DNA of 64,000 nt from an uncultured Candidatus Saccharibacteria bacterium (GCA_964585155.1 CAZPCQ010000001.1:8070-72069), one strand, 5' to 3'. Counted from the stretch's first letter, positions 13,070-62,433 are shown. Notes: generated by a model from the sequence alone, not told the origin. Translations and numbers: made by a program.

Positions 13070-13101
13070 AAAATAACCCTCAATGACGGGGGTTATTTTT
13101 T
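13070..13101 (+). terminator. Terminator after rpmH
   Basis: AAAATAACCCT-CAATGAC-GGGGGTTATTTTTT. Confidence 0.75.
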
Positions 13102-13145
13102 GAAGAAAAGAATACGAAGGGGTGGGAGTGCAAGCCCTTCAAAAA
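13097..13145 (+). repeat. Structured repeat family A, 3' remnant
   Basis: GAAGGGGTGGGAGTGCAAGCC is also present in the 14.1 and 62.2 kb copies. Confidence 0.7.
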
Positions 13146-13185
13146 CATATTTGCATTTTCATTTCAAATCTAGTATAATAAAAGT

Positions 13186-13545
13186 ATGTTATCCCAGCGT
13201 TATCGTTTTCATTCTCGGGGCGGCGTTAATTACACTTATCAAAAGGGTAAAACTATTCGCACGCCTCTGATTTCGCTAGTCTATAATCATAACTCTCGCG
13301 GCCGCCAACGCTTCGCTGTCGTCGTTTCCAAAAAAGTTCTTAAATCCGCCGTCGGTCGCAATACTATCCGCCGCCGCGTTTATGAGGCCATCCGCCTCGA
13401 ACTTCCGGGCTACCGCGAGCCGATGGATAATATTTTTGTCGTCTATAATCAATCCGTCCTCACGATGCCTTTTCTCGAACTTCGTCGCCTCATCAGGGGA
13501 CTAATGGACCGCAGCCTCACCGCTTATCATCCTCATCATAAATAA
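13186..13545 (+). CDS. rnpA: RNase P protein component
   Basis: RFAVVVSKKV.KSAVGRNTIRRR; synteny. Confidence 0.93.
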   Translation: MLSQRYRFHSRGGVNYTYQKGKTIRTPLISLVYNHNSRGRQRFAVVVSKKVLKSAVGRNTIRRRVYEAIRLELPGYREPMDNIFVVYNQSVLTMPFLELRRLIRGLMDRSLTAYHPHHK

Positions 13546-13571
13546 AAGCAGCCCCACCGAGGGCTACTTTT
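13544..13571 (+). terminator. Terminator after rnpA
   Basis: AAAAGCAGCCC-CACCGA-GGGCTACTTTT. Confidence 0.7.
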
Positions 13572-14117
13572 ATAGGCGAAGGATCTTGACATACGTTTAA
13601 TAGTGCGTTAAAATGGTCTCATACAGCTATTGAAAATTACTTTCGTTTACCGAAGGTAATTTTTATAGTCACCTTAAGGCGACTAATCTTGAATGATATA
13701 GTCATATAAGTCTCATTCCACATTGTTAAATTGTACTAATTCATCGACCAACCAATAAAGGTTGAATAGCATCGGCCAATTAGTCCTTCCTGTCAGTCTC
13801 CGCCATATCTCCATATTAGCATAAACTTTACTTAATATAAACACTAAATCATTATAAACATAAATATAAACACAAAAATAACTATATCACAACCCAAGAC
13901 TATACTTCCATAAACCAAATTTTATTATATAATAAGCAACACTAATATATCACCAAATGAATATTTAAGATATAATATTGATAATATGACACCAGATAAA
14001 AAATAAAGCCTCCTGAAGCAAAGGCCTACCGCCTCACGCCTCCCTCTAGCGAATAGTCATTATTTCATCTAAATCCAACTTTTTGTTTCTTAGTCTAGTT
14101 AAACTACGTCGTATTAT

Positions 14118-14212
14118 TCCGAGGCGACGAACCGCCCCTGAAGCGGGGCCTAAGACTTGGCCGAGCGGCCCGGAGCGGCCCCGCGGAAGGGGTGGGAGTG
14201 CAAGCCATCGGA
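14118..14212 (+). repeat. Structured repeat family A, short copy inside a larger nested inverted repeat
   Basis: GGCGACGAACCGCCCCT..CTAAGACTTGGCCGAGCGG..GCGGCCCCGCGGAAGGGGTGGGAGTGCAAGCC, flanked by a perfect 19-bp IR (14068-14086/14248-14266). Confidence 0.85.
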
Positions 14213-14406
14213 TGATTAGAAGAAAGATTTGTCTAGCATATTATCTTACAAAAAGTTGGATTTAGATTATGTACATTATTCGCTTAGAAAAAATTAAAAT
14301 ACCTTTTCCATTTTTTATTTTCAAAATATGTTAAAATTCTTTAAAATAAATATGAATTTCCACATCCCTTCTAGTCATCTCTATAAAAGTATGCTATAAT
14401 GGAACT

Positions 14407-15522
14407 ATGTTTTCATTTATTGATATGATTATCGTCCGCCCCATCACGAACATCCTCTTTTTGATCTACGGTTTCGTGGGTGATTTCGGCCTGGCGATTA
14501 TCCTTTTTACAGTTTTAGTTAAAATTTGTCTCTGGCCTATCGCCAAGAAACAGCTTCATCAGACTCGCCTGATGCGCAAGATTCAGCCTGAGCTCGCTGA
14601 GATCAAGAAGAATTGCAATGGTAACCGCCAGCTCGAATCTCTTCAGATGATGGATCTCTACAAGCGCAACAATATCAAACCTTTCCGCTCTATGCTTACG
14701 CTTATTATCCAGCTGCCGATTTTTATCGCCCTCTATACTGCGGTTCGCGTGATGGTTTTACCAGTTCCCGATGACAATCTTGAGCTTCGCGCCTACGCCC
14801 CCGTCCGCCAGATCGAGCGCGTCGAAGAAGTCGTCCAGCTTCAGCAGCCTTATCTCGAGTATCAGCGCGAAGTTGCCGCCATCCGCAGTGATAGTAATTT
14901 GAGTGACGAAGAAAAAACCGCCAAAATCGACGAACTTCCCAAAGTCACCTATGATTTTCACCCTAAACTTTTCGGTCTTGTCGATCTCGATGTTAAGGCT
15001 GGTTTTGGCTCCACTAGTGCTCTCGTGATTATGGTTTTTGCTCTCGCTTCCGCCTTCACTCAGTTTTGGATTTCTCGCCAACAACTTCCATCTAAAAAAG
15101 GTGACCGTAAAACCTTCCGCCAAATCATGGCCGAAGCCGCCGACGGTAAAGAGCCTGACCAAGCCGATATGAATCAAGTTATGTCTAGTCAGATGGCCTA
15201 TACGATGCCGATTATGATGCTCCTCATTATGATTAATCTCCCTGGCGCTCTTGTCTTTTACTATCTTATCACGAATCTTATGACCGGTCTCCAGCAAAAG
15301 TATATCCTCGGCAAAAAAGAAGAACAAATGGAAATCTCTGCCGACAAAAAACTCATCCGCGACCTCAAGAAAATGGAAGAAGGCCAGATTGTCGAAGATA
15401 CTACATCTAATCGGTGGGTCAAGAGTAAGAATGCGACCAAAAGTGAAGACAAAGCCGGTGTGAAAGTTACGCACATTTCCGCCAAAAGTAGTCGCAGGGG
15501 TCATAAGAAGAAAAGGAGTTAA
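14407..15522 (+). CDS. yidC: Membrane protein insertase YidC
   Basis: DFGLAIILFTVLVK..IQPEL..LIIQLPIFIALY; GALVFYY; synteny. Confidence 0.95.
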   Translation: MFSFIDMIIVRPITNILFLIYGFVGDFGLAIILFTVLVKICLWPIAKKQLHQTRLMRKIQPELAEIKKNCNGNRQLESLQMMDLYKRNNIKPFRSMLTLIIQLPIFIALYTAVRVMVLPVPDDNLELRAYAPVRQIERVEEVVQLQQPYLEYQREVAAIRSDSNLSDEEKTAKIDELPKVTYDFHPKLFGLVDLDVKAGFGSTSALVIMVFALASAFTQFWISRQQLPSKKGDRKTFRQIMAEAADGKEPDQADMNQVMSSQMAYTMPIMMLLIMINLPGALVFYYLITNLMTGLQQKYILGKKEEQMEISADKKLIRDLKKMEEGQIVEDTTSNRWVKSKNATKSEDKAGVKVTHISAKSSRRGHKKKRS

Positions 15523-15525
15523 TCT

Positions 15526-15987
15526 ATGAACAAAGATGAATCAATTCGGTTTGCCACCAAATACCTCGAGGACTTACTTTCGTTTTTCGGTATCAACGTC
15601 GCTGTCGATTCTACCATTGATGACGAAGTTATCCAGCTTTCCATTCCCAGCACCTCGATGAACTCCCTCCTTATCGGCCGCGAAGCGCAGAACCTCCGTG
15701 CCCTCCAGCACATCGTCTCCGCTGCCCTCACTTGTCGCGACGCCGAAGTTACCCGCGTCAATGTCGATGTCGCCGATTACAAACGTCAACGTGCCGACCG
15801 CATCGCCGAGCAAGCTGAGAGATGGATCCGCGAAGTCCGCGTCACTGGTAATCCTAAGCGTCTCAATCTCAATGCCGCCGACCGCCGTGTCGTCCACAAA
15901 GTCGCCCAAGATTACTCCGACATCCGCACTCATTCCGAAGGCGAAGGCCGCGAACGTCAGCTCATTATGGAAAAACTCCCCAACTAA
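15526..15987 (+). CDS. jag: Jag/KhpB RNA-binding protein (KH+R3H only)
   Basis: LLIGREAQNLRALQ, RRVVH..HSEGEGRER; follows yidC. Confidence 0.88.
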   Translation: MNKDESIRFATKYLEDLLSFFGINVAVDSTIDDEVIQLSIPSTSMNSLLIGREAQNLRALQHIVSAALTCRDAEVTRVNVDVADYKRQRADRIAEQAERWIREVRVTGNPKRLNLNAADRRVVHKVAQDYSDIRTHSEGEGRERQLIMEKLPN

Positions 15988-16009
15988 TCTTTTTAGGCTC
16001 CGCAACAGG

Positions 16010-16450
16010 GAATTAAACTCGATTTATGAAAAGTTTAATTCATTATTACGCGGTTTAACTTCACGCAAAAGAAAGTTTAATTTCTTGTCGTGTAATTTAA
16101 GTCTACACACAGAAAAGCATACTCCCATCGCGAACAATTTAAGTCCGCATTCAACAAAGTTTACTCTCGCTATAAACAATTTAAGTCGGAGCCTAAAGAA
16201 ACGTACCCGCCAGTACGTTTCTTTAGCCACCCCTGTTATTTTAGCAATTTTCCGCCCTTAGAAAATCTTAGTTCCGCGTCTGCAAAACTTAATCGGAAGT
16301 TCCGAAAGTTAAGTCAGAAGTTTGTAAAACATAGTCAAGAGATTAGGAAATTAAGATACAACTTAATGAAGTTAAGTGACATATTTTGTAATTTAAGTCA
16401 GATATTTCTTAAACTAAATCCTAATTTAATTGAGCTAAGTTTCAAACTCC
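16010..16450. repeat. Degenerate 21-bp tandem repeat array
   Basis: AAA(C/T)TTAA(G)T-like core recurs every 21 bp (nine consecutive units 16262-16449; AATTTAAGTC about 42 bp apart in 16095-16190). Confidence 0.7.
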
Positions 16451-16456
16451 CCCAAC

Positions 16457-18229
16457 TCACCGCGCCACGCATCTCACTGAAAGACCGTCATAACGGTTAC
16501 CATAACCACCGTTCTGTGCTGTGGGGTTTACTGAACTGCTGAAGGAGAGAACATATGATATAATATCGCTAACAGCACTATCGGATGACCAGTAATCGCC
16601 GCGAGAGCCAGCTTCTGTCATAGTCCCATGATACATATACCCACTGTATACGAAGAAAAGCGGCGCCAATCTGATATCGTATTGACCACTAGATAAGGTG
16701 CTCTGAAGGTTATATTGCGAGAGAAGGAAACCGAAAGATTTGCTGGATGTCTTATTATTGCCTATTGGTAGACGCCATCCCCTTGGACATATACTTCGTG
16801 AAGCAGATGCTTTGTCTGAAATATTCTGCGCCTCATTGGCTGTTGTTGCTCCCCAAGAGTAGTAATTACCTGATAAATAATGCGCGTCATACTCTTTATT
16901 AGTAACTACCTGGTTCCCCATATCTTTATAGAAATTAGGATTATCTGATGGAGTTAACGATTGTACGTTTTTCCATACATCTGCACATCCAGATAACGCA
17001 CTACCAGCGGTCAAATCACACTTTTTTATGGAAGTAGGATTTGAAAGTGCATATACGCCAGGGTTATAGTATTTCACCAAATTGGCGGTGTTTTGACTAC
17101 CGGACCAGAACCCACTCGCCCCCGTCGTCGACTTCCAGCTCCCCACTGTTTCCGGAATATCCGAATCCGCACTCGTCAGCGTCCTCCCGTTCAGATCAAG
17201 CGCCAAATTCTGCGTCATCCAACAGTTGCCATCCGCTAACTTCGCAATCCAGTAATACTTGCTATCTCTCGCATCCTTCACTCTTGCTGTATCACCTATC
17301 AGCGCCGCATCGCACACTCGCCACGTCATATCTTGCATTGTCGGCAGGGAAGATAGATTGACTACTTCTTTCGCATCTGTCGCTACACTCAGTGTGATAT
17401 TTGATTTATAGTGATCCGCTTTCGCCCCTTCCATATTTGCCGCGAACGCCAAAGTATATGGTTGTGTCACGTTGGTCAGTTGACTTCCATCACTTTTCTT
17501 CACTGTATCCGCCGCTATCCCTACTGTTGATTGGATTGCTTGATAAGTCAAACTCGCCGGGTCCGCATTATGACTTTTTGCCACCGCATAACCCCACTGC
17601 ATCGCGCCAATTCCATTCGCTGCTGTCGCTGTTGCGATACTACTAATTACATCCGGATTATTTGGTGTCGCACCGGTCAGCAAAGTACTGTCCGCCTGCA
17701 CGAACACTTGATATTGATCTACGTTGTTTGCTCCCACTGTGAAGTTTATGCTAATATATTGCGCTCCACCACTACTAGATACAGGCTGCGTGATAGTATT
17801 GTTATCCATTGCCGTGTCAATACTTAGTGCTACTCCTTTTTCCGGCACCGTTAGCGCTTGCGTATCGATCAAATTTTCTGTGTCACCCTCAGTTGCTGAT
17901 ACTTCACTTATTTGAGTAGGGAATATCATCATTCCGATTAACCCAACCAGAGCCAATGACGCCATCGCCGGCAAGCCTAGAGGAATTATCTTGCCCACAA
18001 TACGACTTTTCTTATGATTTAGACAAAATTCTTGGCGAGGGTCGCTCCCGAACTTTTCCACCACTCGTCCAGCCGCTTGTGTTTTCCTAAAGAAACTCTT
18101 ATTCAACTTATTTTTGTAGAAACAAGTACGTTTATCACTACGAAGAAGATGTGATTTTTGCTTAAGTTTTTCTGCACAAGAAACATTACTTTCTCGCACA
18201 GAATAAGTTTTCTTTATTCTATGCCTCAT
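16457..18229 (-). CDS. FISUMP (Fib_succ_major) domain surface protein 1
   Basis: LADGNCWMTQNL, GNYYSWGA, ICPRGWRLP, GDYWSS, GLSVRCVAR; TM helix; RBS AAGGAGG before MRHRIKK. Confidence 0.8.
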   Translation of the reverse strand: MRHRIKKTYSVRESNVSCAEKLKQKSHLLRSDKRTCFYKNKLNKSFFRKTQAAGRVVEKFGSDPRQEFCLNHKKSRIVGKIIPLGLPAMASLALVGLIGMMIFPTQISEVSATEGDTENLIDTQALTVPEKGVALSIDTAMDNNTITQPVSSSGGAQYISINFTVGANNVDQYQVFVQADSTLLTGATPNNPDVISSIATATAANGIGAMQWGYAVAKSHNADPASLTYQAIQSTVGIAADTVKKSDGSQLTNVTQPYTLAFAANMEGAKADHYKSNITLSVATDAKEVVNLSSLPTMQDMTWRVCDAALIGDTARVKDARDSKYYWIAKLADGNCWMTQNLALDLNGRTLTSADSDIPETVGSWKSTTGASGFWSGSQNTANLVKYYNPGVYALSNPTSIKKCDLTAGSALSGCADVWKNVQSLTPSDNPNFYKDMGNQVVTNKEYDAHYLSGNYYSWGATTANEAQNISDKASASRSICPRGWRLPIGNNKTSSKSFGFLLSQYNLQSTLSSGQYDIRLAPLFFVYSGYMYHGTMTEAGSRGDYWSSDSAVSDIISYVLSFSSSVNPTAQNGGYGNRYDGLSVRCVAR

Positions 18230-18622: not shown

Positions 18623-18683
18623 CTTTCCGCGCACCTAATAATATAATATAACCCCGCGGAAAACCATTCCCCTACTCCCCCCT

Positions 18684-38337: not shown

Positions 38338-38660
38338 TATTACCCCTCCTAATTTTTTGTCTTCTGATCTGATTTCACTGGATAACCGCAGTAGAACTTG
38401 TATAACTACCTGGTTTATAAAGTCCCACTTCGGTCTTTGCTGGATTTTTGCTGGTTTCTGCTATGTCTGGCCCATCCGCCAGAGATTTTCCCACCTTTCT
38501 TCTAGTAAAATTGATTTCAAAGAACCTCGGGTCACACCCAACCTTCAAATTATAGCACACTTCACCAAACATTTCAAGTCTTGCCAAAACGCTTATGCTG
38601 TGCTACAATAAGCTCATCGCTCTGCTAATGAGCCAAAAGTTGATTTTTCTATAAAGATTT

Positions 38661-38870
38661 TGAGGGCGGCGAACCGCCTCTGGAGCGGGACCTAAGACTT
38701 GGCCGAGCGGATTCCGAACTGCCGAGAATAGCGAACAGAAAGAAAAGTCTTTGAGTAGTATTCTATATATCATACACTTTATTAGACTTTTCTTTCTTAA
38801 GCGACGCAGGCAGCATGTGGCGCCAGCCACTGCAGCGGTCCCGCGGAAGAGGTGGGAGCGAAAGCCCTCA
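38661..38870 (+). repeat. Structured repeat family A, full copy
   Basis: Aligns end to end with 62221-62430; ends 6 bp from the galE stop codon. Confidence 0.9.
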
Positions 38871-42178: not shown

Positions 42179-42590
42179 CTGCCCTCCTTGTGGGTATTAA
42201 TTATCGCCCCGCAGCCGCCATCTTTGAGGAGGGCCAACTCCATACAAAAATGGCGCCGCGAGGCGAAACCACAATCTAGAAGCAATCTGCTCAAGAACGT
42301 TAGCTTTCTCGTGACGCCATTTTCACGTTCTCAAACAAATACACTCAAATAAGCAATTGTCATAATTCCAAATTGTGATTTCGCACTTCCAATTATATAT
42401 CAAACTGTCTGCGTTTTCAAGCATTTTTCTCGCCTCCCCAGCGAGCTGACGTACGTATCATAAGTTTCATAACCCACTCTTTAGCAGTTAGGATTAAAAA
42501 CCTTCAGAGCTGTCAACAACACGGCCTCCTAAGGCAGATACCTCCTCCTCTCCATCTCTCCTCTAGCGAATTAATCTTGATATTATGCTC

Positions 42591-42746
42591 GGCGCGACCC
42601 GGTGAACCTTTTCATTCGAGGTTATTTCGTTCCTGGCTGGCTCGGGTCCGATTCAGGCGGGTTGGTTCTGAGTGAGAATGGGCTAAATCCTGATGAGGAG
42701 AGAGCCACCAAACCTCGGAGGGAAAGGTGAGCGCAAGGGGAGCGCC
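42591..42746 (+). repeat. Structured repeat family B, copy 1
   Basis: GGCGCGACCCGGTGAACCTTTTCATTC..GGAAAGGTGAGCGCAAGGG shared with 51742-51898. Confidence 0.85.
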
Positions 42747-42915
42747 TTCGCATATATTATTTTAATTCGCCTAAAAAATAAAAATCCTTTTCCATTTTTT
42801 ATTTTCGATATTAATTATAAAAACTATTTCCAAAAACTTTTTATTAATTTTTTGGTTTCAAAAATCTAAGAATATCCTCCTTTCCCAAACCCCCAATCTA
42901 TGCTATACTTATCTT

Positions 42916-44343: not shown

Positions 44344-46337
44344 CCTCTAGGAACTCTCCAAAGGTGGGCTCACGAGCGCAAAACCCCTCAAAATCACCCA
44401 AAAATGACCAACGGTCAGTTTTTCCTGTCAAAAACGCCCAAAAATCTCAAAAACCGAAAAAAGATAATTCTTCGTCGGAAACCGCGCTTTTTGACAAAGA
44501 ATCAAACTGGTCTTTGGAGGTTAGACACCTTTCTCCCAGAAAGGGGTCTAAATATGGCGTCGCCCTCGTCTGTGACTGGCTCACCACCCCTGGTGGCGCC
44601 GAAAAAGTTCTCCTCGAGCTCCACCGTATGTATCCCGACGCCCCCATCTACACCTCTCAATATAGTAAAAAGGGAATCGACTGGTTTGCTGACGCCGATG
44701 TTCGCACCGGCTGGCTCCAAATCTTCCCGAGAGCCTTCCGCAAATTCATCGGTCCCTTACGTCAGCTCTATTTTAGCCACCTCGACCTTTCCAGCTACGA
44801 TCTTGTTATCTCTGTTACTGGTGCTGAAGCCAAATCCGTCCGTACGAAACCTAGGCAACAATCTTCATCAAAAAGCTCCAAAACCGACCTCACCGTGCCC
44901 AAAAAACACCCATCATCAAAAAATGCACCTTCCATCGAACCGCAAACCGGCGCCACCCACCTCTGTTACTGTCACGTCCCTACCCAATACTATTGGCAAA
45001 TGTATGACAAATATGTCGCAAACCCTGGTTTTGGCCTGCTCAACCCTCTTGTTCGCCTCGCTTTTAGAGTTCTAGTCAAGCCTCTCCGCCAGGCCGATTA
45101 TCGCGCCGCTCAGCAGCCCGACCAGTTTATCACCATCTCAAATTACGCCAAAGATCAGATTCAGAAATACTATCAGCGTGACGCTGTTGTCATCGCTCCG
45201 CCGGTCGAAGTTGCCAAATTTACCCGCTCTTCTGTGTGCTCTCTGCCGGAAAACTCTAAAAATCATCGACGGAATTCTACTTTTCCACCGGAAGTAGCCC
45301 AGAAATCCACTGCTAGTGGGGAATTATCCACCAAATCTCCCAAGATTTCCACAAATTCTCCACAAGAAATCCACTGCACGCCTCATACTTTTCCATCAAG
45401 ATCATCTACTTCTCCACAGATTATCCACAGCCAAAACGTAGTTTATCCACAGGGGATTACAACTTCTCCACAACATTTCCACCAGAAATCCACCGAAAAC
45501 CGTAACTTTTCCACAACTTCTCCACAGAATATAGCAGATCTTTCCACCGTTAGCACTAAAATTTCCACAACTTTTCCACAAGTTTTCCACAATCAAAGTC
45601 AAAGTTATCCACAGGACGGATATTTTATCATTTCTTGTCGCCAGGTGAACTGGAAACGCGTTGACCTTGCCATCACCGCCTGCAAATCTCTTCATCTCCC
45701 CCTCAAAGTCATCGGTAGCGGCCCCGAGCATTCACGCCTTGTCAAACTTGCCGATAACTGTCCTAATATTGAATTTATCCCTTGGCTCGACACTGGAGAA
45801 TTAGCCCATTTTCTGCAAAATGCCACCGCCTATCTTTTTCCTAGCCTTGAGCCTTTTGGCATCGCTGCTGTCGAGGCTCTTGCTGCCGGTTGTCCCGTCA
45901 TCGCCTATCGCGAGGGCGGCAGCCAAGACTTTATCGAAGAAGGGAAGAATGGGCTCTTCTTCGATCAGCAGACTCCGGATTCTCTTATCAAGGCTCTCCA
46001 TACTTTCTATGATTACGACTTCGACCCCAATATTGTCGCTCAGACCGCCCAGCGTTTTAGTCCTGACCACTTCCGCCAGCAGATTCAGTCTCTCATCAAT
46101 CAATCTTTTCACGGTATCGTGAAATCAGATCTCGACCCCAGTCAAAGCCACCCCAGTTCATCGACCTCATCTCACTCCAAGCCTATCACGCAAGCCAAAC
46201 AAGGTCACTCAAATCCCAAAGCATCAAACTCCTCATCCCGCCCCAAATCCATCACGAAATCCAAACCTCAGCCCAAAGATCTCATATCAGACCATCGTGC
46301 CAATAAAAAATCAACCAAGAAAGGAACAAATTTATGA
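44340..46337 (+). CDS. GT4 glycosyltransferase with several low-complexity insertions
   Basis: VALVCDWLT..GGAEKV, WKRVDLAI, EPFGIAAVEALAAGCPVIAY. Confidence 0.88.
   Translation: MTSRNSPKVGSRAQNPSKSPKNDQRSVFPVKNAQKSQKPKKDNSSSETALFDKESNWSLEVRHLSPRKGSKYGVALVCDWLTTPGGAEKVLLELHRMYPDAPIYTSQYSKKGIDWFADADVRTGWLQIFPRAFRKFIGPLRQLYFSHLDLSSYDLVISVTGAEAKSVRTKPRQQSSSKSSKTDLTVPKKHPSSKNAPSIEPQTGATHLCYCHVPTQYYWQMYDKYVANPGFGLLNPLVRLAFRVLVKPLRQADYRAAQQPDQFITISNYAKDQIQKYYQRDAVVIAPPVEVAKFTRSSVCSLPENSKNHRRNSTFPPEVAQKSTASGELSTKSPKISTNSPQEIHCTPHTFPSRSSTSPQIIHSQNVVYPQGITTSPQHFHQKSTENRNFSTTSPQNIADLSTVSTKISTTFPQVFHNQSQSYPQDGYFIISCRQVNWKRVDLAITACKSLHLPLKVIGSGPEHSRLVKLADNCPNIEFIPWLDTGELAHFLQNATAYLFPSLEPFGIAAVEALAAGCPVIAYREGGSQDFIEEGKNGLFFDQQTPDSLIKALHTFYDYDFDPNIVAQTAQRFSPDHFRQQIQSLINQSFHGIVKSDLDPSQSHPSSSTSSHSKPITQAKQGHSNPKASNSSSRPKSITKSKPQPKDLISDHRANKKSTKKGTNL
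45281..45613 (+). repeat. Phased DnaA-box array inside the GT4 coding sequence
   Basis: 20 (T/A)T(A/T/C)TCCAC-type 9-mers, every gap 11, 21 or 22 bp; perfect TTATCCACA at 45421, 45443 and 45605. Confidence 0.9.
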
Positions 46338-48328
46338 AGATCCTCCGCAACCTTCTCTGGCCCCTAGTCTACGCCCTCCCTGCCGTCCTCTTTTTCTCCT
46401 ATCACCCCGTCATCGGCCTCGGCGCCAACTCCTCCATGAACTTCGAACTCTCCCTTCCGCTCCTCTGGCTGATTATTTTTGATTTCTTTAGTTTCATTAC
46501 AATGGTCGTCCTCTTCGTTCAAAAACGTCAATCAGCGCAGCACAAATCCACTTCAAAATCAATAGGCCAAGCATCCGCCCGCTCTAAGCATCACTCTGGC
46601 CCCTGGGGACCTCACCTCCCTGGCCTCACCGACCGCCGCTTCTTCCTCTTAGCCATTTTCCCGCTCTACCTCACCATCTCGGTTTTCTGGTCGGCCAATC
46701 CCCTCCGCGGTCTCTTCACCGCCGGCGTGATGTGGGCTGTCTTTTTCGCCGTTTTCTCTCTGTTATTTATTGTCCCCCAGACTGGCGCTCCTCGCCGCCT
46801 CCGCACTCACGTCCTCTTGACAATGTTCATCTCCGCTGTTATCGTTTGCAAATTTTGCTATGCTCAGAGTATTATGGATACTTGCTTTGGCCTTTCCCGC
46901 GATGCTACTCTCCTCTGCCCCGGCTGCACTTACCGCTCCTTCGGCTTTCCTCATCCTTCCGGCTTCGCCATCGAGCCCCAGTTTATGGGCAATCTCCTTC
47001 TCGCCCCCACCCTCACCGCGCTCTATCTCGTCGCCTTCCGCTCGCGCAAATTCGCCAATACCGTTATCCATGAAGCCTCTCATCTTGAGAATGAGGCCGA
47101 ACATAATCTCCTTCACGACCAAGTTCACCTCCCCGAGGTCAACTGGAAACTCTGGCAACGCATCGGTATGATCATCCTCGCCGGCTTCCTTTCGATGACG
47201 CTGTTTTTCACCTTCTCCCGCGGCGCCATTTACGCTTACGTCGTCGCCATCTTGAGTATGCTAATTTTTGCCCTCAAGCGTCACCAATTCCGCTGGAGCC
47301 TCATCGCTATCCCCGTTGTCAGTTTCATCCTCTCGCTCAGCCTCCAGGGAACATTCGCCGCCGTCGGCCCCACCGCTGAGACTTTCTTCTCCGGCGTCGC
47401 CAAATCCGTCCACCAGCTCTCCCTCGGCCTCATCGACTTCCGTTCGCTCGCTTATGAGCCCTCCGAGGACGCCATCGAGCAATATAGTTATGAGCATGCC
47501 GTCCCCACCTCTGTCGCTCGGGAGATTCTCAAACGTCAATATCAATCCCAGCTCTCTTCTCAATCTGTGAAAAACTCCTCATCAAACGGTGGAAAACCTG
47601 TGGATAAAACCAGCCTAGATGTGGAAAAGAATGACCAAAATGTAGATAAAATCGATCAAGATGTAGAAAAAACCGCCGAAATCATCGACCACGAAATCAC
47701 CAAAGAGGAAACCAAGTTAGAAAACGAGGTTGATACTACGCTTGAAGATATCATTTTCGAGGGCTACGTTCCCGAATCCACCAATATCCGCCTGCACCTC
47801 AATCGCGCCGCCATCGACACCTGGCTTTCCGCCCCCGGCCATCCCGAGTCCGGCCTCAGTATTGGTCTCAAATGTTCCCACTCCGACCCCTGCCTTGCCT
47901 CTGGTAAACTCACTCCCACCAGCATCCTCTTCGGCGTTGGCCTTGGTGGTGCCGGCACCGCCCTCTATCTCAATTCTCCCGTTACTGACATTAACTCGCC
48001 CAAAGAAATCGTCCAAAACGAACCCTTCTCCCTCCTCTTAGAAACCGGACTCGTCGGCATCGCTCTGGCTATTTTCGGACTCCTCATCATCTTCGCGCCC
48101 CAGATTTTCACGCGCAAATTCCTCGACGGCAAATCCGCTCCAGCTACCAAATCCACCCCCAGCCCCTTCTGGCGCCATCCCGCTCTCCCGCTTCTCCTCT
48201 CCCTCATCGTCGCCTACGTCATCACCCTCAATTTCTTCTCCGGCCTCCCCAACGCCCTCCAGATTTACCTCATGCCGCCCCTCCTCTACCTCATCTTTTC
48301 TGACCACTACCGCGTCACCACTGTTTAG
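46334..48328 (+). CDS. O-antigen ligase/polymerase-like (Wzy_C) membrane protein
   Basis: Many TMs; GFAIEPQ, TFSRGA, FGVGLGG, NEPFSLLLETGLVG. Confidence 0.75.
   Translation: MKILRNLLWPLVYALPAVLFFSYHPVIGLGANSSMNFELSLPLLWLIIFDFFSFITMVVLFVQKRQSAQHKSTSKSIGQASARSKHHSGPWGPHLPGLTDRRFFLLAIFPLYLTISVFWSANPLRGLFTAGVMWAVFFAVFSLLFIVPQTGAPRRLRTHVLLTMFISAVIVCKFCYAQSIMDTCFGLSRDATLLCPGCTYRSFGFPHPSGFAIEPQFMGNLLLAPTLTALYLVAFRSRKFANTVIHEASHLENEAEHNLLHDQVHLPEVNWKLWQRIGMIILAGFLSMTLFFTFSRGAIYAYVVAILSMLIFALKRHQFRWSLIAIPVVSFILSLSLQGTFAAVGPTAETFFSGVAKSVHQLSLGLIDFRSLAYEPSEDAIEQYSYEHAVPTSVAREILKRQYQSQLSSQSVKNSSSNGGKPVDKTSLDVEKNDQNVDKIDQDVEKTAEIIDHEITKEETKLENEVDTTLEDIIFEGYVPESTNIRLHLNRAAIDTWLSAPGHPESGLSIGLKCSHSDPCLASGKLTPTSILFGVGLGGAGTALYLNSPVTDINSPKEIVQNEPFSLLLETGLVGIALAIFGLLIIFAPQIFTRKFLDGKSAPATKSTPSPFWRHPALPLLLSLIVAYVITLNFFSGLPNALQIYLMPPLLYLIFSDHYRVTTV
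47566..47670 (+). repeat. Small phased DnaA-box array inside the ligase-like gene
   Basis: Boxes at 47566, 47588, 47599 (perfect TGTGGATAA), 47620, 47641, 47662. Confidence 0.75.
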
Positions 48329-50252: not shown

Positions 50253-51737
50253 ATGCTAAAACTCAACACTAAATTAAAATACCCACTCTTCACAATAACT
50301 TTTGCGTTGGGTGGATTTTTCTTATTTCAATACCTAACTTTTATTCCCGAATACTCCAACGCCACAACTATAGAAACTCCCGTCTACGACGATTCCAAAG
50401 TCGACACGCGCACTCTTTCTGACATTACTTATATGCAAGAAATGACATCTGGAATATGTAAACGTTCTGTAAAAAATGAAAGTAAACAACTTATCGATGG
50501 CCGTGATGGAAAACACTATTGGGTAACAAAGCTCGTTGGTCCAGGCGGTGAAGAAAAAAATGGATGTTGGATGACGCAAAATTTGGATTTCGATTTGTGG
50601 AATGAGGAGACTAATGAACCAATAGTATTAAAAGTGGATAATTTAAATTTTATGGGCACAGATATAGAAAAGAATTGGGAGTCTACTTCTGGGAGATCTG
50701 TGCTATGGGCGGATTCGGGGAGCGAGACAGTTAAGTACTATGACCCGGGGTACTATTTGTATAAAGGCTTTTCTTTACGTCAGCCGGCGTCTCGCGATTT
50801 GGCATATGGCAAGGCATCGGAAAATTTGACCTTGACGGATGCTCATTACCTTCAAGGGAATTACTATTCATTCAACGCTGCTACGGCTGGCAAAGGGGCA
50901 AATTTTGGCCTTGTGGGTAAGGATGAAGATGTACGGAGTAGTATTTGTCCGAAAGGCTGGAGGCTACCTACGGCTCTTAGTGATGATGGGGTGTCATTCA
51001 ATTTTTTAAATACAGTAAGCACAACTAAGATATTTTCATCACCGTATTTCTTTATAAATAGCGGTTTTGTGAATGGAGGCTTGCTAGATGATGCCTTCGC
51101 TGGTAGATACTGGTCTTCTACGGCTTATGCTTATAGGGACGATGCTTATGATTGGGGTTTTGCTGATGGTGACGAGTGGCCAGCGCTTGGTATAATTTAC
51201 AGATATGAGGGAAAGACTATAAGATGCGTAGCGAGGGACGATACTGAAGATGTGGAGACTCCGGGCATTGATAATCCAAACACCTCCGTCACCGTCCCAA
51301 ACATAATAACACTAGACGTAAGTAATAATGTAAATATAGAAACAAATACTAATACAGTAAACGAAGGTAGTTTCACCGCTTCCGTCAGTTCTAATGCTCC
51401 ATATAGCATTAGTCTTAGTACCACGGATGGTGGCCACACCGACTTACGTAATGATAATACCAACTCCTCCATTCCCGCATTAAACCCTACTTCTAATATC
51501 ACAGAGAGTAGTAGTAAATGGTGGGGAATCAAATGTACTAACTCAGGCACTTCCACGGGTTGTACTAAAACAACCTATACTGGTCTTACTAATCACTTAA
51601 CTCCCACTCTTTTCTATACATCAACTCAAAGTACCTCTAACCAACTCACCCACTTCACCATCGGCATCCAAACCTCTCCCGACCTCCCAAGTGGCACTTA
51701 TTCCACCAGTATATTAGTTACTGCATCTCAGAATTAG
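50253..51737 (+). CDS. FISUMP domain surface protein 3 (FISUMP first, beta-sandwich domain last)
   Basis: NGCWMTQNL, GNYYSFNAA, ICPKGWRLP, GRYWSST, TIRCVAR; RBS AAGGAGG. Confidence 0.8.
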   Translation: MLKLNTKLKYPLFTITFALGGFFLFQYLTFIPEYSNATTIETPVYDDSKVDTRTLSDITYMQEMTSGICKRSVKNESKQLIDGRDGKHYWVTKLVGPGGEEKNGCWMTQNLDFDLWNEETNEPIVLKVDNLNFMGTDIEKNWESTSGRSVLWADSGSETVKYYDPGYYLYKGFSLRQPASRDLAYGKASENLTLTDAHYLQGNYYSFNAATAGKGANFGLVGKDEDVRSSICPKGWRLPTALSDDGVSFNFLNTVSTTKIFSSPYFFINSGFVNGGLLDDAFAGRYWSSTAYAYRDDAYDWGFADGDEWPALGIIYRYEGKTIRCVARDDTEDVETPGIDNPNTSVTVPNIITLDVSNNVNIETNTNTVNEGSFTASVSSNAPYSISLSTTDGGHTDLRNDNTNSSIPALNPTSNITESSSKWWGIKCTNSGTSTGCTKTTYTGLTNHLTPTLFYTSTQSTSNQLTHFTIGIQTSPDLPSGTYSTSILVTASQN

Positions 51738-51741
51738 TCTC

Positions 51742-51898
51742 GGCGCGACCCGGTGAACCTTTTCATTCAAGGTTATTTCTTTACTGGCTGAGCCGGGTCC
51801 GATTTGCGAGAGGAGAATAGTAGAACAGAATAACTATGCTCCGCAATGAGGAGAGGCTCACCGAACCTTGAATGGAAAGGTGAGCGCAAGGGTTGCGC
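51742..51898 (+). repeat. Structured repeat family B, copy 2
   Basis: Homologous to 42591-42746; starts 4 bp after the FISUMP-3 stop codon. Confidence 0.85.
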
Positions 51899-52554: not shown

Positions 52555-52631
52555 CGCGGGATAGAGCAGCCTGGTAGCTCGTTTGGCTCATAACCAAAAG
52601 GTCGTTGGTTCAAATCCAACTCCCGCCACCA
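52555..52631 (+). tRNA. tRNA-Met(CAT), initiator type
   Basis: Cloverleaf CGCGGGA..TTTGG-CTCATAA-CCAAA..GTTGG-TTCAAAT-CCAAC-TCCCGCC-A-CCA; C1:C72 mismatch; encoded CCA; promoter TTGATT-17-TATAAT upstream. Confidence 0.95.
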
Positions 52632-52632
52632 T

Positions 52633-53461: not shown

Positions 53462-53474
53462 GAGGTATAATACA

Positions 53475-57987: not shown

Positions 57988-58461
57988 CTAAAAGAACTTA
58001 ACTATTAACAATATTATAACCCCTACGATAAATAAAAACAAGGCCAAATTTGCCGCCCGTGCGTATTTCCCAGTAATTCTACAGGCCTCGTCATAGGCTG
58101 CATTATAATCATTGACGGCCACTTCCAGAATTTCTTTCTCATATTCTAGATTATTGATTTTTTCGAGTTCAACGGGGCCAATCGGCATTGGCCAGTTATG
58201 TATTGCTCGATAGTGCGCCAAAAGTATTCCAATAGATATCAAGATTGCAATGACTCCTACCGCAAAGAAAATTATCCCATACAACTCTTTAGGCAAACAT
58301 TCACGAATATCTGAAAAGAAATAAGTTAAAATTGCTATCCCGAGAGTCAAGAATAATAACATACGATTTTTGATATCTTTACAGGTTTGGTCGACCCTTG
58401 CGTATTTCCTCCGGCCTTCCTCCAACAGGAAATAATATTTAGCAGATTCGTCATTGCTCAT
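57988..58461 (-). CDS. Hypothetical 3-TM protein, AT-rich
   Basis: Two N-proximal TMs, a helical linker and a C-terminal TM. Confidence 0.65.
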   Translation of the reverse strand: MSNDESAKYYFLLEEGRRKYARVDQTCKDIKNRMLLFLTLGIAILTYFFSDIRECLPKELYGIIFFAVGVIAILISIGILLAHYRAIHNWPMPIGPVELEKINNLEYEKEILEVAVNDYNAAYDEACRITGKYARAANLALFLFIVGVIILLIVKFF

Positions 58462-58520
58462 ATCCCCAGTTTAGCATACCTCAGTGGCTAAGTAAAATCC
58501 TAGTGTCAATAAAAATAGCT

Positions 58521-59297
58521 CTATCTCCCCACTTTCACCGTCTTACTATAAATTTCCTTCATCCGCTCATCCGGAAACTTCTGGTCCAGCACCTTCTCTA
58601 GCCGTGTTTTCGCCGGGTCACCTTCGTCCCGCTCATTCTGCCGCCACACTGCCGCTGCCGACAGGGTAATATCAAACAATAGAAACAATGCAATCGCCAG
58701 GCACAGCCGATTCGCCTGCCTTGCCTCAATCTGCCGATAAATTTTCTCAATAAACGGGCACACCCCCTTCGCCGTCACGAACACCAGTATTCCCCACACC
58801 AGCGCATACGGCACCGTCGTCCGCCCGTCAATATTCAGCCACAGTTGTGAATAATCCCACGACCGCGTCTGGAAAATTATCTCCTGCAGCCAACTGAGCA
58901 AGAACTCCAGTGCTCCGCCAAAAAACGCTCCTCCCACCAAGCATACCCACCCCCGGAACTTCGGTAGGTAAAATATCAAATAAATCAGCACCGCCCCAAT
59001 CCCATACACCGGACTAAACGGCCCATACACCAGCCCTCGCCGCGACTCCCAGTCAAACACCCCCGTCGTCCACAGCGTCGATACCAGATGCAGTACCTCT
59101 TCCCAATACGTCCCAAATACGCATCCTACTGTAAAAATCAGCACTACCATATTAAAAATCCCCCGTTTTGTCAACTTCAGCTGCCCGTCATCCTCCGCAA
59201 ACAGCCATTCTCGCCAATTCCACCCCTGTTTCCGTGGCGTCTTCATCACTTTAGCCTTTACCGATTTCTTTTTCGCGGAATTCGTTGTCTGCTTCAT
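58521..59297 (-). CDS. Putative ABC transporter permease (DUF1113/CmpB-like)
   Basis: GLVYGPFSPVYGIGA, LEF..SWLQE..F..RSWDYS..LNIDGR; start at 59297, 6 nt after TATAAT. Confidence 0.75.
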   Translation of the reverse strand: MKQTTNSAKKKSVKAKVMKTPRKQGWNWREWLFAEDDGQLKLTKRGIFNMVVLIFTVGCVFGTYWEEVLHLVSTLWTTGVFDWESRRGLVYGPFSPVYGIGAVLIYLIFYLPKFRGWVCLVGGAFFGGALEFLLSWLQEIIFQTRSWDYSQLWLNIDGRTTVPYALVWGILVFVTAKGVCPFIEKIYRQIEARQANRLCLAIALFLLFDITLSAAAVWRQNERDEGDPAKTRLEKVLDQKFPDERMKEIYSKTVKVGR

Positions 59298-59495
59298 AAT
59301 CTCATTATACCGAACTTTCCCCAAAAATCCAACCGCATATCTCCAGCCTCGCCACTCTTCATTACAATCTTGCCAAAAGTCAAAACCCCCTTAAACTTCA
59401 TCACGATCCCGCAAAATGTCCAGTCAACCTCTAACGCATCCAACCCATAAAAAGCACCCCGTCCGTAGACAGGGTGCATAGGAGCGTGTGGCGAG

Positions 59496-59927
59496 TTACA
59501 AGGCGGCAACCTGAGCGTCAGCGCTGTCCTCCGGCCGCCTCAGAGCAATCACGTTGCCAAAGGATCTCTCGTCGCCGGCTTCCGCGGCCTCCCTGCTCGC
59601 CTCGAGCTCGGCCTGCCGCCGCTCCCGCTCCTCCGGGCTCGTTTCCAGCCCATCAAAGCAGAACCCAGCGCAGACCCGCCGCTTCTCCAGGAATACCAGC
59701 GCCTCGCGGACTTTGTTGACAGTAAAAGGGAACTCGTGCAGCTGCGTGTTCTCGGTTTCCTCCATCGGCTGGCAGAAAATCTCCACCTTGCCGTCCGCCA
59801 GATTCACCAGTGTCCGCCGCGGCGGTACCCGGAAGAACTCCAGCAGCATCTTGTACGCATCGGGATTCTTGTCAGCGAAAGTCTCCCTGCTCATCACGGT
59901 AGAAGTCTGTTTGTCCATAGGGGTCAC
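59496..59927 (-). CDS. Hypothetical protein
   Basis: ORF with an upstream minus-strand TGTGCTATAAT promoter near 59975. Confidence 0.55.
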   Translation of the reverse strand: MTPMDKQTSTVMSRETFADKNPDAYKMLLEFFRVPPRRTLVNLADGKVEIFCQPMEETENTQLHEFPFTVNKVREALVFLEKRRVCAGFCFDGLETSPEERERRQAELEASREAAEAGDERSFGNVIALRRPEDSADAQVAAL

Positions 59928-60230
59928 TCTTCTTTCCTATAAAATAACGAACAAGCCATAATTGACCCACCTCTATTATAGCACACAATTTTCCCAAAAT
60001 CAACTATCATTGTGGAAAACTTCCCATTTTGTCCATTATTTTAATAAAAATCCTAAATTACCGCAACAGGGAACTACCCCTATTACCACAACTCTCATCA
60101 CCACTCAAAACCTATAGATTAACCATAAAAACTATTGACAAAAACAAAAAAGTGTGCTACAATGGATGTATAAGGTGGCTAAATAATAGCTCGTACCTAA
60201 CACAATTTGTATGAAAAGGAGAATACCGTT

Positions 60231-60908
60231 ATGTCTAATACTCTGAGAGTCCTGATGAGAACCCACTTCGGGCGCAACGACGCTAAGGATTATGCCATCG
60301 ACGATTTCACTGAGTATCATCAGAAAATTGTCGACACAGCAAAGAAGCTGTTTCAGGCGGTCCCGGTGATACCCAACGACAAGGCTAAGTTCGAAGAAAT
60401 CTCCGCCAAGGCGACCCAGTCGTACTATGACACCGCAGAACTCCGCTCGACGCTCACTGGCGCGATTGATGAGTTCGGTAAAATGCTGCGGAGTGTCTGG
60501 GGTGACAGCGAGTTGCCCGTCTTCATCGAAGAGGCTGAGTCTAGCAACCCTTTGAGCACCGGCTGGATTTTTGAGATTTCAGACGAGTCTCTGAGTGAGA
60601 TAGAGTCTTGCCAGCGAGAGCTGAACGACAGCGATCGAGACCTCGATGACGCTCTCTGGTGTCTTCAGAATGGTCTTGGGCTCAGGTGGCTAGTGGAAGT
60701 AGGATTTTTCTGCTTCCCGTTCGGCGATGATGAGGATACTCCGGACAATTCCGAGCTGCGCAATTCTGAGCTGAAGGAATTTCTGGAGATCTGCGACAAG
60801 CAATACGCTCTGATCAAGAAAATATTCAACCTGGCCAGTCAGGCCCGGGATCACGAGCTGGCTGAGATCGTCGCCACCAAAGCCGCACGCGCTGTCGCCA
60901 TGGCCTAG
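60231..60908 (+). CDS. Hypothetical acidic protein
   Basis: Promoter TTGACA(60135)-17-TACAAT; RBS AAGGAG; terminator 60964-60986. Confidence 0.65.
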   Translation: MSNTLRVLMRTHFGRNDAKDYAIDDFTEYHQKIVDTAKKLFQAVPVIPNDKAKFEEISAKATQSYYDTAELRSTLTGAIDEFGKMLRSVWGDSELPVFIEEAESSNPLSTGWIFEISDESLSEIESCQRELNDSDRDLDDALWCLQNGLGLRWLVEVGFFCFPFGDDEDTPDNSELRNSELKEFLEICDKQYALIKKIFNLASQARDHELAEIVATKAARAVAMA

Positions 60909-61361
60909 CTATCACTCATACCAACTTGCCGGATTCGACCCATACGCCTTTTCAGCAAAACTCGCCCCCTACCACCCGTAGGGGGCACTTGCTATCCCGA
61001 ACCAAAGTTCAAAAATTAGTCATATTAATCGCGCAAGAGCAACTACTACTTTAGTAATTACCAATTTTGTCCATTATTTTAATAAAAATTCTAATATCTC
61101 GCAATTAAAACTACCCCTGTAAACATACCTTTATCCCCTAATCAAATCAGTAAAATAGACATAAAAAGTATTGACAAAAATAGCAATGTGTGCTACAATG
61201 GAAGTATGAGATACATTAAGTATCATCAAGCAGTTTAATAGTTCTTGAAATATAGGTAAAAATAAAATCATTTCCTCAGTTTACCACGTAATTTTTCGGA
61301 GTAACGACCTCGATTTCGTGGAAATGATTTTAGATTATCTATATTTCAGGAGGGAAAGAAA

Positions 61362-61880
61362 ATGTTTAAAACTGTTAAAACCGTCCACGATGACATTTTT
61401 TACCAATTCAGTAATGACGCACTCGTCAAGGAGTTGAAGCTCCTGGAAGGCCAGGCCGAGGAGCTTGGTTGGAACTTGCTGCTGGACACCGACATCGGCC
61501 AGTTTGGGCTTTTAAGCCCAGAGGGCGTTATCTGCCAGTATTCCTACCAGAAGCCGGGCAGCTATCAAGCCGACACGGCCTCCGTTGCCCTGACTCGCAA
61601 CCTTGTCACCCTGTTCGTCGAAAAGTTCCAGACCATATCAGATGAACTGGAGCAGCTCCGGCGCAAAAATGAGGATCTGAGCGCCGACCTCCGCGAGGCC
61701 AAGAAGAACAATGAGCGCCTTAGTGGGCAGCTCAACAATGCTGAGTGCAAACTCAGTTATGAGAGGCGTGAGCGGAAGGAGGCTCAGGAACAGCTGCGCG
61801 TCGCCCAAACGGAGCTGGCCAAGCTAAAAGAGGCTTCCGGCGGCATCGCTGCCACCACTGATGCGGGTATGTCCGCCTAA
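61362..61880 (+). CDS. Hypothetical protein with a C-terminal coiled coil
   Basis: Promoter TTGACA(61171)-17-TACAAT; RBS AGGAGG; terminator 61933-61960. Confidence 0.65.
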   Translation: MFKTVKTVHDDIFYQFSNDALVKELKLLEGQAEELGWNLLLDTDIGQFGLLSPEGVICQYSYQKPGSYQADTASVALTRNLVTLFVEKFQTISDELEQLRRKNEDLSADLREAKKNNERLSGQLNNAECKLSYERRERKEAQEQLRVAQTELAKLKEASGGIAATTDAGMSA

Positions 61881-62056
61881 CTCCACTTCTGGCATTAGCC
61901 CCACCTCTATTACTCCTCCAAGAACTACCATTAATCCCCCGGCTTCGGCTGGGGGATTTCTGTTTTTATCATAAAGTCGCTGACCTATTCTTGAGATATT
62001 TTCCATTCAAGGCCCATAAAATCATCAAAAATCCTCAAAATCTTCAAAAAAGTCCA

Positions 62057-62166
62057 TTAGCACTCTTGCATTGTGAGTGCTAATGTGCTACAATAGAGGT
62101 AAGTTGGCAATCGCAATGCCCGACTGCCAACTAAATTAAATAGCACTATTGACATTCGAGTGCTAG
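62057..62166 (+). promoter_or_regulatory. Three CIRCE/CIRCE-like HrcA operators
   Basis: TTAGCACTC-N9-GAGTGCTAA (62057, perfect); TTGGCAATC-N9-GACTGCCAA (62104); ATAGCACTA-N9-GAGTGCTAG (62140). Confidence 0.88.
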
Positions 62167-62217
62167 TGAATTAGAATAATAAAAGATGAAGTTTAATAAT
62201 TTGACGTAGAAAATGAT

Positions 62218-62433
62218 TTTGAAGGCGACGAACCGCCCCTGGAGCGGGGCCTAAGACTTGGCCGAGCGGATTCCGAACTGCCGAGGATAGCGACTAGAAA
62301 GAAAAAGTCAGTACGTATCAATATATAACCAATGTAATACAAATGACTTTTTCTTTCTGGAGCGACGCAGGCAGCACGTGGCGTCAGCCACTGCAGCGGC
62401 CCCGCGGAAGGGGTGGGAGTGCAAGCCTTCAAA
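62218..62433 (+). repeat. Structured repeat family A, full copy in the dnaK leader
   Basis: TTTGAAGGC..GCCTTCAAA termini; homologous to 38661-38870. Confidence 0.9.

Follow-up and report, generated by a model that had tools for sequence, protein, structure and literature searches.

What kind of element is a structured repeat that occurs four times in a short part of a Saccharibacteria genome? Saccharibacteria have tiny genomes and are thought to be poor in mobile elements. The repeat considered here, family A, lies within 64,000 nucleotides (nt) of an uncultured Candidatus Saccharibacteria bacterium (GCA_964585155.1 CAZPCQ010000001.1:8070-72069), and this whole stretch is referred to as the window. 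A first reading, made from the sequence alone (the sequence-only reading), proposed either a mobile element resembling miniature transposable elements with inverted repeats (MITEs) and repetitive extragenic palindromes (REPs), or a novel non-coding RNA (ncRNA). The follow-up analysis leads to the conclusion that family A is probably a non-autonomous mobile palindromic element of gut Saccharibacteria, of the kind known as Rickettsia palindromic elements (RPEs). The family is new to description, and it is found in a new phylum for this known kind of element. Its distinguishing features are a fixed 87-nt core, an invariant apex combined with a co-varying stem, inverted flank repeats, nested modular long forms, and a single site occupied in both orientations.

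Structure and covariation of the element

The window contains two full copies in a long form, one short copy and a truncated remnant (Table 1). All four were found on the plus strand where the sequence-only reading had placed them, the remnant being extended to 13115-13140. The full copies are ~90% identical to each other, the apical hairpin excluded. The minimum free energy is -99.3 kcal/mol for the copy at 38661 (z -8.7) and -106 kcal/mol for the copy at 62218 (z -9.5), and none of 200 dinucleotide shuffles folds as well as either of them. The short copy at 14118 folds with a z of -4.6.

At the base of the predicted fold of the full copies are three 8-bp helices, P1-P3, with two loops between them, one asymmetric and the other a 3x3 GGA/GGA loop. 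Above these helices, a four-way junction carries the conserved hairpin P4, the long hairpin P5 and the conserved hairpin P6. The earlier description of the element as rod-like is correct for the basal rod P1-P3, but the rod is topped by the junction and the whole is no plain rod. Similarly, the GGA/GGA loop said to be conserved is present in the full copies, whereas the 14118 copy has GAA/GGA. P5 is a long purine/pyrimidine-tract hairpin, and its AT-rich tip of 41-47 nt is wholly different between the two full copies. The long-range pairs for which compensatory changes had been proposed are exact between the full copies in each case: GAAGGC/GCCTTC vs GAGGGC/GCCCTC, CCGCCCCT/AGGGGTGG vs CCGCCTCT/AGAGGTGG, and GCGGGGCC/GGCCCCGC vs GCGGGACC/GGTCCCGC.

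Two tests named by the sequence-only reading were covariation over more copies and a search for a known Rfam family. The covariation is strong. In an alignment of 11 copies, 93% of the cells are paired and 16 of the 34 pairs are changed on both sides, a number of two-sided changes that none of 500 shuffles matches, while sliding the partner by 1-3 columns reduces the pairing to 28-56%. The covariance model finds every copy again, together with a diverged copy, L001:3194-3286 (loci of related genomes are given by L numbers). A gathering-threshold scan of the whole window against Rfam 15 returned only a tRNA-Met at 52555 and left the element unmatched. Permissive scans of three copies, long and short, returned sub-threshold, miRNA-like hairpin noise only.

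The short form defines the element. Its core is exactly 87 nt (29 codons) long in 9 of 10 type-1 copies, and the element measures ~95-110 nt with its flanks and 210-216 nt in the long form. The type-1 (ruminant) core combines invariant ends GGGT...ACCC, invariant loops and an invariant 36-nt apex, GGGCCTAAGACTTGGCCGAGCGGCCCGGAGCGGCCC, with a P2 helix that is variable between copies but paired. The rod consists, in order, of P1, the asymmetric loop, the sequence-variable P2, a small GAA/GA or GGA/GGA loop, P3 and the invariant apex UAAGACUUGGCCGAGCGGCCCGGAGC. A second subtype comprises the window copies, L015 and the DNA under P0004, and it has the same architecture and apex with other arm sequences. 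The long form in the window is the same rod, in which the CCCGG of the apex is swapped for a 123-nt module (extended P4, P5 and P6). The origin of the short form by simple deletion from the long form is ruled out, as CCCGG stands where the module would be. Since the short form is the common form of the family, present at the matched loci outside the window, the 14118 copy is no local deletion product but a standard short form, contrary to its earlier description as internally deleted.

The long form appears to be modular in itself. AGCGA(A)C direct repeats bracket P5 in both full copies (38730-38736/38800-38805 and 62289-62294/62361-62366), and in the same metagenomes the tip of P5 consists of CTGCG, GCAACTTGTTAC or 41-47 nt. 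Because of these direct repeats and the variable tip, P5 itself looks like a nested insertion within the long form. A further variant occurs in Saccharibacteria at L009 3024-3143, where the 22-nt start of the apex is common to the family and the interior and arms are different (covariance-model score 17.9 bits, E 0.15). Judged from its sequence, this locus may be a third subtype.

Distribution

The 20-mer CCTAAGACTTGGCCGAGCGG of the element occurs 3 times in the window (0 expected). For a motif of its 3′ part, 1.35 occurrences are expected and 7 are seen, of which the element copies account for 4. The 20-mer was searched for in one genome per species over 185,579 species. It matched 12 loci, all of them in Candidatus Saccharibacteria and mostly in ruminant-gut metagenome-assembled genomes (MAGs). 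In total, ~18 further copies were found beyond the window, solely in Saccharibacteria. In the four metagenomes that hold the window, the k-mer depth of the element is ~25-45x the depth of its flanks, and dozens of contigs continue from the element into unrelated sequence.

Other collections contain few or no copies. A search of the protein database with the element peptides in all four open frames returned just six proteins, which indicates that the database holds few carriers, and the metagenome scan gave one real locus and one chance match. No match to the element was found in the plasmid, phage and IMG/VR collections, and a full-text literature search returned no account of such an element in Saccharibacteria. 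The apex contains UGGCCGAGCGG, which we take to resemble the D-arm of class-II tRNAs. A tRNA-like origin of the apex was rejected: ARAGORN calls nothing in the element, and the 20-mer matches no tRNA genes in the 185,579 genomes.

Insertion within protein-coding genes

Most copies in related genomes are located within protein-coding genes and in frame, with at least nine such copies (Table 1). In QueA, TGT, CysRS, UvrD, IleRS, MiaA and the FtsJ-like protein, the insert has sequence that matches Pfam domains on either side. Four of the six reading frames of the core are stop-free. Where both junctions of an intragenic copy are intact, the copy contains no stop codon and the host frame is kept in every case. 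All eight sense-oriented intragenic copies, including the left junction of a murB copy in L027, use the Gly/Pro-rich frame (GGRNVSFEGPKTWPSGPERPEKETFGQDP), and the Arg-rich alternative is used by none of them. The peptides predicted from the element frames include GPKTWPSGPERPEK, EGPKTWPSGPERPEK and GPLRAARPSLRPFER.

A very stable hairpin with a copy-specific outer stem, which brings the flanks of the host open reading frame (ORF) together, could in principle be cut out of the mRNA, or ribosomes could pass over it as they do at the T4 gene 60 'hop' and the mitochondrial 'byp' elements. Such removal or skipping would make an open frame and a length of 29 codons unneeded. The intact intragenic copies are nevertheless all open and in frame, although just 4 of 6 frames are open, and the core has 29 codons; the universal open frame and this length therefore disfavor removal or skipping, and we regard it as very improbable.

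Another repeat was noted in the IleRS gene of L006. At ~aa 340-470 of the stop-to-stop ORF, a 25-aa block, TTGDAAWGTPDGASATAGENAAAGP, occurs twice in frame in this gene, which also carries the element. From its sequence, this block may be an intragenic repeat of another kind in ruminant Saccharibacteria.

Gain, loss and rearrangement

Orthologous loci without the element are frequent. Ten relatives share the recF-dnaN-dnaA-rpmH-rnpA-yidC-jag synteny with the window, and all of them lack the element. The rnpA-yidC spacer measures 50-70 nt in most of these relatives, 267 nt in L020 and 860 nt in the window. Likewise, all 11 dnaK loci of relatives (DnaK 95-97% identical) are without the element. 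L034 and the window have the same CIRCE-like operator and promoter, and the dnaK leader downstream of them measures ~45 nt in L034 and ~300 nt in the window; this operator-promoter arrangement is present in relatives that lack the element. The dnaK leaders of the empty relatives are only ~70-75% identical to the window leader and do not fix the ends of the insertion, and the nusA leaders of the window and L004 have diverged too far for an alignment of the boundaries. A reciprocal case is given by L007 and L010: the efp-tlyA junction is empty in L010 and occupied in L007 (+93 nt), and the mid-tlyA site is empty in L007 and occupied in L010 (+90 nt).

The enlarged rnpA-yidC spacer (window 13546-14390) is AT-rich and holds the short copy. 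It also contains a strong promoter-like site at 13586-13614, followed by a hairpin and a T-run. By its sequence, the 860-nt spacer appears to be either an insertion specific to this lineage or the remains of a gene.

Two sites are occupied in more than one species. The uvrD copies of L005 and L026 are identical at 79 of 87 positions; all 8 differences fall in P2 and are compensatory, with host flanks of 67% and 86% identity. In tgt, L001 and L002 carry the element at one site, and the L001 copy is an old one in which roughly a quarter of the canonical apex is gone. Its arms are wholly different in sequence but pair nearly perfectly (-48 kcal/mol), and pairing therefore outlasts the constraint on the apex.

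The same sites are also a ground for supposing that no transposition takes place, and that the copies are ancient insertions homogenized by gene conversion and by host-level selection, as protein-binding sites or as mRNA-stability or terminator hairpins. The sharing of sites between species in uvrD and tgt would be explained in this way, as would an apex that is 100% conserved while the host genes diverge by 14-33%. Copies directly after stop codons, of galE in the window and of pgk, polA and a pilC-like gene at related loci, carry hairpins that could stabilize or terminate transcripts. However, the loss of the canonical apex in the tgt copy of L001 speaks against uniform host selection on the apex, and the intragenic sites in unrelated enzymes share no regulatory logic. 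The many empty orthologous sites, together with the lineage-restricted range, indicate repeated gain of the element. For these reasons, maintenance by the host is an unlikely explanation, and a mobile element remains the preferred one.

At three loci, the element lies at a junction where the gene order departs from that of relatives or a gene is cut short. In L013 (1187-1310) it lies at an efp-element-murB junction in which tlyA is missing, in L027 (633-735) the 5′ part of murB joins the nusA leader at the element, and in L028 (701-798) the 5′ part of iscS joins the end of an unrelated gene there. These junctions are due either to recombination between copies or to assembly chimeras formed through the 36-nt invariant apex.

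Flanks, strand bias and possible mechanism

Direct target duplications and a fixed target motif were sought at the flanks of the copies, and none were seen. The immediate flanks of each copy are complementary to each other and copy-specific, for example GTAAATGAC...GTCATTTAC in L007. In 7 of the 9 intact type-1 copies, pairing is far better between a copy's own flanks than for flanks of other copies, an advantage that is absent from the rearranged L013 and L027 copies. Identical flanks occur only in L004, where the sequence GTTAAC is itself a palindrome, and the left flanks end in AAC, GAC, GTC, GGC, TAA or CGG. In the L007/L010 pair, the left ATG is the native start codon and its right complement, CAT, belongs to the inserted DNA. 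The window provides two more examples. The short copy is central in a ~205-nt palindrome closed by an outer stem of 19-20 bp (14067-14086/14250-14269), and the private flanks of copy 2 are missing from the element-free dnaK leader of L034.

The pairs that depart from Watson-Crick geometry are biased by strand. On the sense strand of the element, G:T cells outnumber A:C cells by 17 vs 4, or by 7 vs 1 when two degenerate copies are left out, and both copies that lie antisense in host genes likewise show G:T rather than A:C. The sense strand carries G:T whatever the direction of the host gene. This pattern in the sequences argues for folding of the sense strand independently of host transcription, most simply as single-stranded DNA.

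Such a bias is compatible with RNA as well, in the form of G:U pairs, and it bears on the ncRNA proposed by the sequence-only reading. According to this explanation, the long form is a structured ncRNA gene or a functional leader element, and the short copies are its degenerate or retro-dispersed derivatives. A sigma-70-like promoter with an extended -10 element is directed into the 38661 copy, beyond which no gene follows on that strand, and the 62218 copy is necessarily transcribed within the dnaK leader. The very stable four-way junction, the conservation of P4 and P6 between the full copies and the single orientation common to all four window copies point the same way. Yet the widespread form is the short one, the element is absent at dnaK, yidC and rpmH in close relatives, and the tip of P5 varies freely. 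In addition, Rfam contains no match, the locus is found in no RNA run, and copies lie in frame within ORFs, some of them antisense with G:T still on the sense strand of the element. An ncRNA is superfluous for the data and fits poorly with these intragenic copies, and we hold it to be improbable as an account of the family; for the long form at 38661, with its own promoter-like site and no gene downstream on that strand, an independent RNA keeps a low probability.

On the reading of family A as a mobile palindromic element, mobility would depend on folding of the sense strand, most likely in the state of single-stranded DNA. An enzyme acting in trans, with its gene elsewhere in the genome, would recognize the element by the invariant apex and loops. 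P2 would need pairing alone and could co-vary among element lineages. Copies are observed to have landed in leaders, at gene ends and within ORFs, and in essential genes only copies in stop-free frames are seen, where the 29-codon insert would add a Gly/Pro-rich peptide such as the one given above. After insertion, the hairpin would be retained and extended outward into the flanks of each copy, probably as template switching or correction takes place between the arms. This process, which we infer, would explain why old copies have perfect arms and why complementary flanks are specific to each copy, with no need of selection at the individual loci. The window copies would be passengers that give the leaders of dnaK and yidC and the galE 3′ end very stable structure (~-100 kcal/mol in the dnaK leader from copy 2), with any regulatory effect being secondary.

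The uvrD site contains the element in both orientations, antisense in L005 and sense in L026. A flip in place and two independent insertions are indistinguishable at this site because the flanks are palindromic. Both the sense frame and the codon-aligned antisense frame are open, and a codon-aligned flip of 90 nt would therefore keep the ORF. A broader proposal is a new mode of mobility and maintenance, in which a strand-specific, structure-recognized single-stranded hairpin inserts without direct duplication, its palindrome is perfected and grown by template switching, which makes the inverted flank copies, and the element could flip in place inside essential genes. We offer it as a tentative idea with a rather small chance of being correct.

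Several points weigh against a mobile element. No candidate for the mobilizing enzyme was found in the 64-kb window and the short loci searched, and exact-match searches with GalE and a 172-aa protein of the window gave no further sequence. By exact match, the MAGs representing each species hold only 1-3 copies, which may be an underestimate, as MAG assemblies tend to drop repeats. Identical apexes across species could reflect host-level selection instead of recent spread. Translation of the inserts is predicted from open frames only. No exact filled/empty pair was found among near-identical genomes that would fix the precise ends of the element or show whether the complementary flanks form at insertion or afterwards. 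Finally, L027 and L028 are k=31 contigs whose junctions may be assembly artefacts.

This hairpin occurs in leaders and even in the reading frames for enzymes of tRNA modification, for aminoacyl-tRNA synthetases and for a repair helicase, which suggests that selfish DNA is tolerated in reduced genomes and may shape them. In practice, the element breaks short-read assemblies, gives rise to spurious ORFs (P0004, P0005), inflates or splits the gene calls of MAGs, and marks rearrangement junctions. The partition of conservation into an invariant apex with loops, a freely co-varying stem and copy-specific flanks makes the family a clean system for the search for the enzyme and for the study of palindrome maintenance. 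If flipping in place is true, these reduced-genome episymbionts would possess, in the element, an inherent source of alternative surface loops for their proteins.

Features and surroundings of the element in the window

The features of the window copies and the intragenic copies of related genomes are collected in Table 1.

Table 1. Family A copies and associated features in the window, and intragenic copies in related genomes
Feature	Position or locus	Strand or orientation	Remarks
Truncated remnant	13115-13140	+	3′ arm only (P2 3′ strand, loop, P1 3′ strand); between rpmH terminator and rnpA promoter-like site
Left arm of copy-specific outer stem	14067-14086	+	ATCTAAATCCAACTTTTTG; partner 14250-14269
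Short-form copy	14118-14212	+	Canonical 36-nt apex GGGCCTAAGACTTGGCCGAGCGGCCCGGAGCGGCCC; upstream of yidC, within 860-nt lineage-specific insertion
Right arm of copy-specific outer stem	14250-14269	+	CAAAAAGTTGGATTTAGAT; partner 14067-14086
Promoter-like site TTGCCA-17-TGcTACAAT	38581-38609	+	Directed into copy 1; no downstream gene on same strand
Long-form copy 1	38661-38870	+	P1-P3 basal helices, four-way junction, hairpins P4 and P6, long hairpin P5; 7 nt past galE stop codon, antisense to galE
Variable AT-rich P5 tip, copy 1	38747-38787	+	CTGCG instead in other copies of same metagenomes
dnaK promoter-like site TTGACA-17-TAGAAT	62140-62177	+	Overlaps CIRCE-like inverted repeat ATAGCACTA-N9-GAGTGCTAG
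Copy-specific left flank of copy 2	62190-62217	+	TAATAATTTGACGTA...; partly complementary to 62434-62466 (read from sequence)
Long-form copy 2	62218-62433	+	dnaK 5′ leader, between promoter/CIRCE-like operator and ribosome-binding site
Variable AT-rich P5 tip, copy 2	62304-62350	+	GCAACTTGTTAC instead in other copies of same metagenomes
Copy-specific right flank of copy 2	62434-62466	+	...TACGTTAGATTTTATTA; partly complementary to 62190-62217 (read from sequence)
QueA	L001	Sense	
TGT	L002	Sense	Diverged copy at same site in L001
CysRS	L003	Antisense	
UvrD	L005, L026	Antisense (L005), sense (L026)	Same site
IleRS	L006	Sense	
MiaA	L008	Sense	~Codon 3
FtsJ-like methyltransferase	L007, L010	Sense	Codon 2 (L007), mid-gene (L010)

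Pfam annotation of the ~40 window ORFs bears out the neighbors named earlier (rpmH/rnpA, yidC, galE and dnaK). It identifies a TraG-like ATPase, a lysozyme, the recF-dnaN-dnaA-rpmH-rnpA-yidC-jag cluster, many glycosyltransferases, galE, nusA and dnaK, and leaves 13 ORFs without any family. No transposase was detected among these ORFs, in agreement with the sequence-only reading, and no integrase, reverse transcriptase or HUH protein either. At 562-7210, a TraG-like P-loop ATPase, a 1001-aa protein without a family and a protein with a phage-tail-lysozyme domain are encoded side by side, and from sequence these genes resemble a module for type IV secretion or a conjugation-like process.

A second repeat family, B, is present at 42582-42745 and 51733-51898. 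It is ~165 nt long, with two conserved blocks (89% and 83% identical) and a variable middle, and has no Rfam match. The family B copy at 42582 and the short copy of family A share the upstream motif CCTCTAGCGAAT, and the downstream sequence 14289-14336 resembles 42773-42820. These common flank motifs suggest a common cassette-like context. Upstream of copy 1, a 74-nt block (38575-38648) consisting of a promoter-like site and a small hairpin, GCTCATCGCTCTGCTAATGAGC, recurs at ~85% identity with other flanks on far more abundant contigs of the same metagenomes; this block is thus a conserved or repeated unit by itself.

DnaA boxes (TTWTCCACA) occur 25 times in the window, against 1.3 expected. 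They are clustered at 8542-8756, 11086-11276, 12717-12836, 33687-33890, 45421-45613 and 47599-47628. The clusters around dnaA are expected, whereas the dense, roughly helically phased clusters in an ABC-transporter gene and a glycosyltransferase gene are unexpected. The GC skew is strongly negative, from -0.05 to -0.56, over nearly the whole window (1-64000), being slightly positive only at 50-51 kb and ~0 at the 3′ end. No reversal of sign is seen at dnaA-rpmH, where the origin would be expected.

Comparison with known systems

Several known systems share part of the features of family A. The integron attC sites are similar in that a folded single strand is involved, with conserved pairing, a few unpaired bases and a variable stem. 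In contrast to attC sites, family A occurs without cassette arrays or intI in the window, lies inside genes, and has a long invariant apex. The AAC...GTT ends are present in 3 of 9 copies, and in 2 of these 3 the bases next to AAC are purines and those next to GTT pyrimidines, which is the reverse of RYYYAAC...GTTRRRY. The IS200/IS605-derived palindrome-associated elements (PATEs) have two subterminal hairpins and a fixed 4-5-nt target, whereas family A is a single rod with no fixed target.

The REP/BIME and IS200/IS605-type elements resemble family A in their strand-specific imperfect hairpins, the recognition of single-stranded DNA and the lack of target duplication, and the sense-strand G:T bias points to such a single-strand mechanism. 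REPs are 20-40 nt long and extragenic with a GTAG head, whereas family A measures 87-216 nt, has many intragenic copies and no conserved GTAG at its ends. The HUH/Y1 gene that would be the partner in REP/RAYT and IS200/IS605 systems was not found among the window ORFs by Pfam. Classical MITEs (Correia/CREE, Nezha, RUP, ERIC) are likewise small, non-coding and multicopy, with inverted ends and a foldable transcript or single strand; they can be co-transcribed with neighbors and change leaders, and they occasionally form in-frame fusions. Family A differs from them in flanks that are inverted, not direct, and in that the whole element is a structured rod with conserved loops. Its arms are complementary, with no transposase among the ~40 window ORFs and no match in plasmids and phages. 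The earlier proposal of a MITE/REP-like mobile element is thus sound as to mobility: copies are dispersed, present or absent at orthologous loci, truncated or rearranged in some cases, and found in ORFs in both orientations. It does not hold for the assignment to these classes, given the lack of direct target duplication, the length of 87-216 nt and the many intragenic copies, and with no cognate insertion sequence found in the DNA searched.

Judged by analogy, the closest counterpart is the group of Rickettsia palindromic elements. These are dispersed repeats of ~100-150 bp that form a long hairpin, located in intergenic regions and, unusually often, in frame within unrelated housekeeping ORFs, where they encode a conserved peptide; no associated transposase is known (PMC10969869). 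Family A is likewise a dispersed hairpin repeat (z -4.6 to -9.5; a consensus rod of 34 pairs), both intergenic and in frame in housekeeping ORFs. The hosts are all Saccharibacteria and the likeness is to the description of RPEs, not to the sequences of RPE 1-10, so membership of the RPE family proper is not claimed. The two differ in host, Saccharibacteria (Patescibacteria) here and Alphaproteobacteria there, and family A is set apart by its fixed 87-nt core, invariant 36-nt apex, co-varying stem and own complementary flanks, as well as by a modular long form with nested hairpins and a site occupied in both orientations. Family A would thus represent a second, independent instance of the RPE phenomenon, outside Rickettsia.

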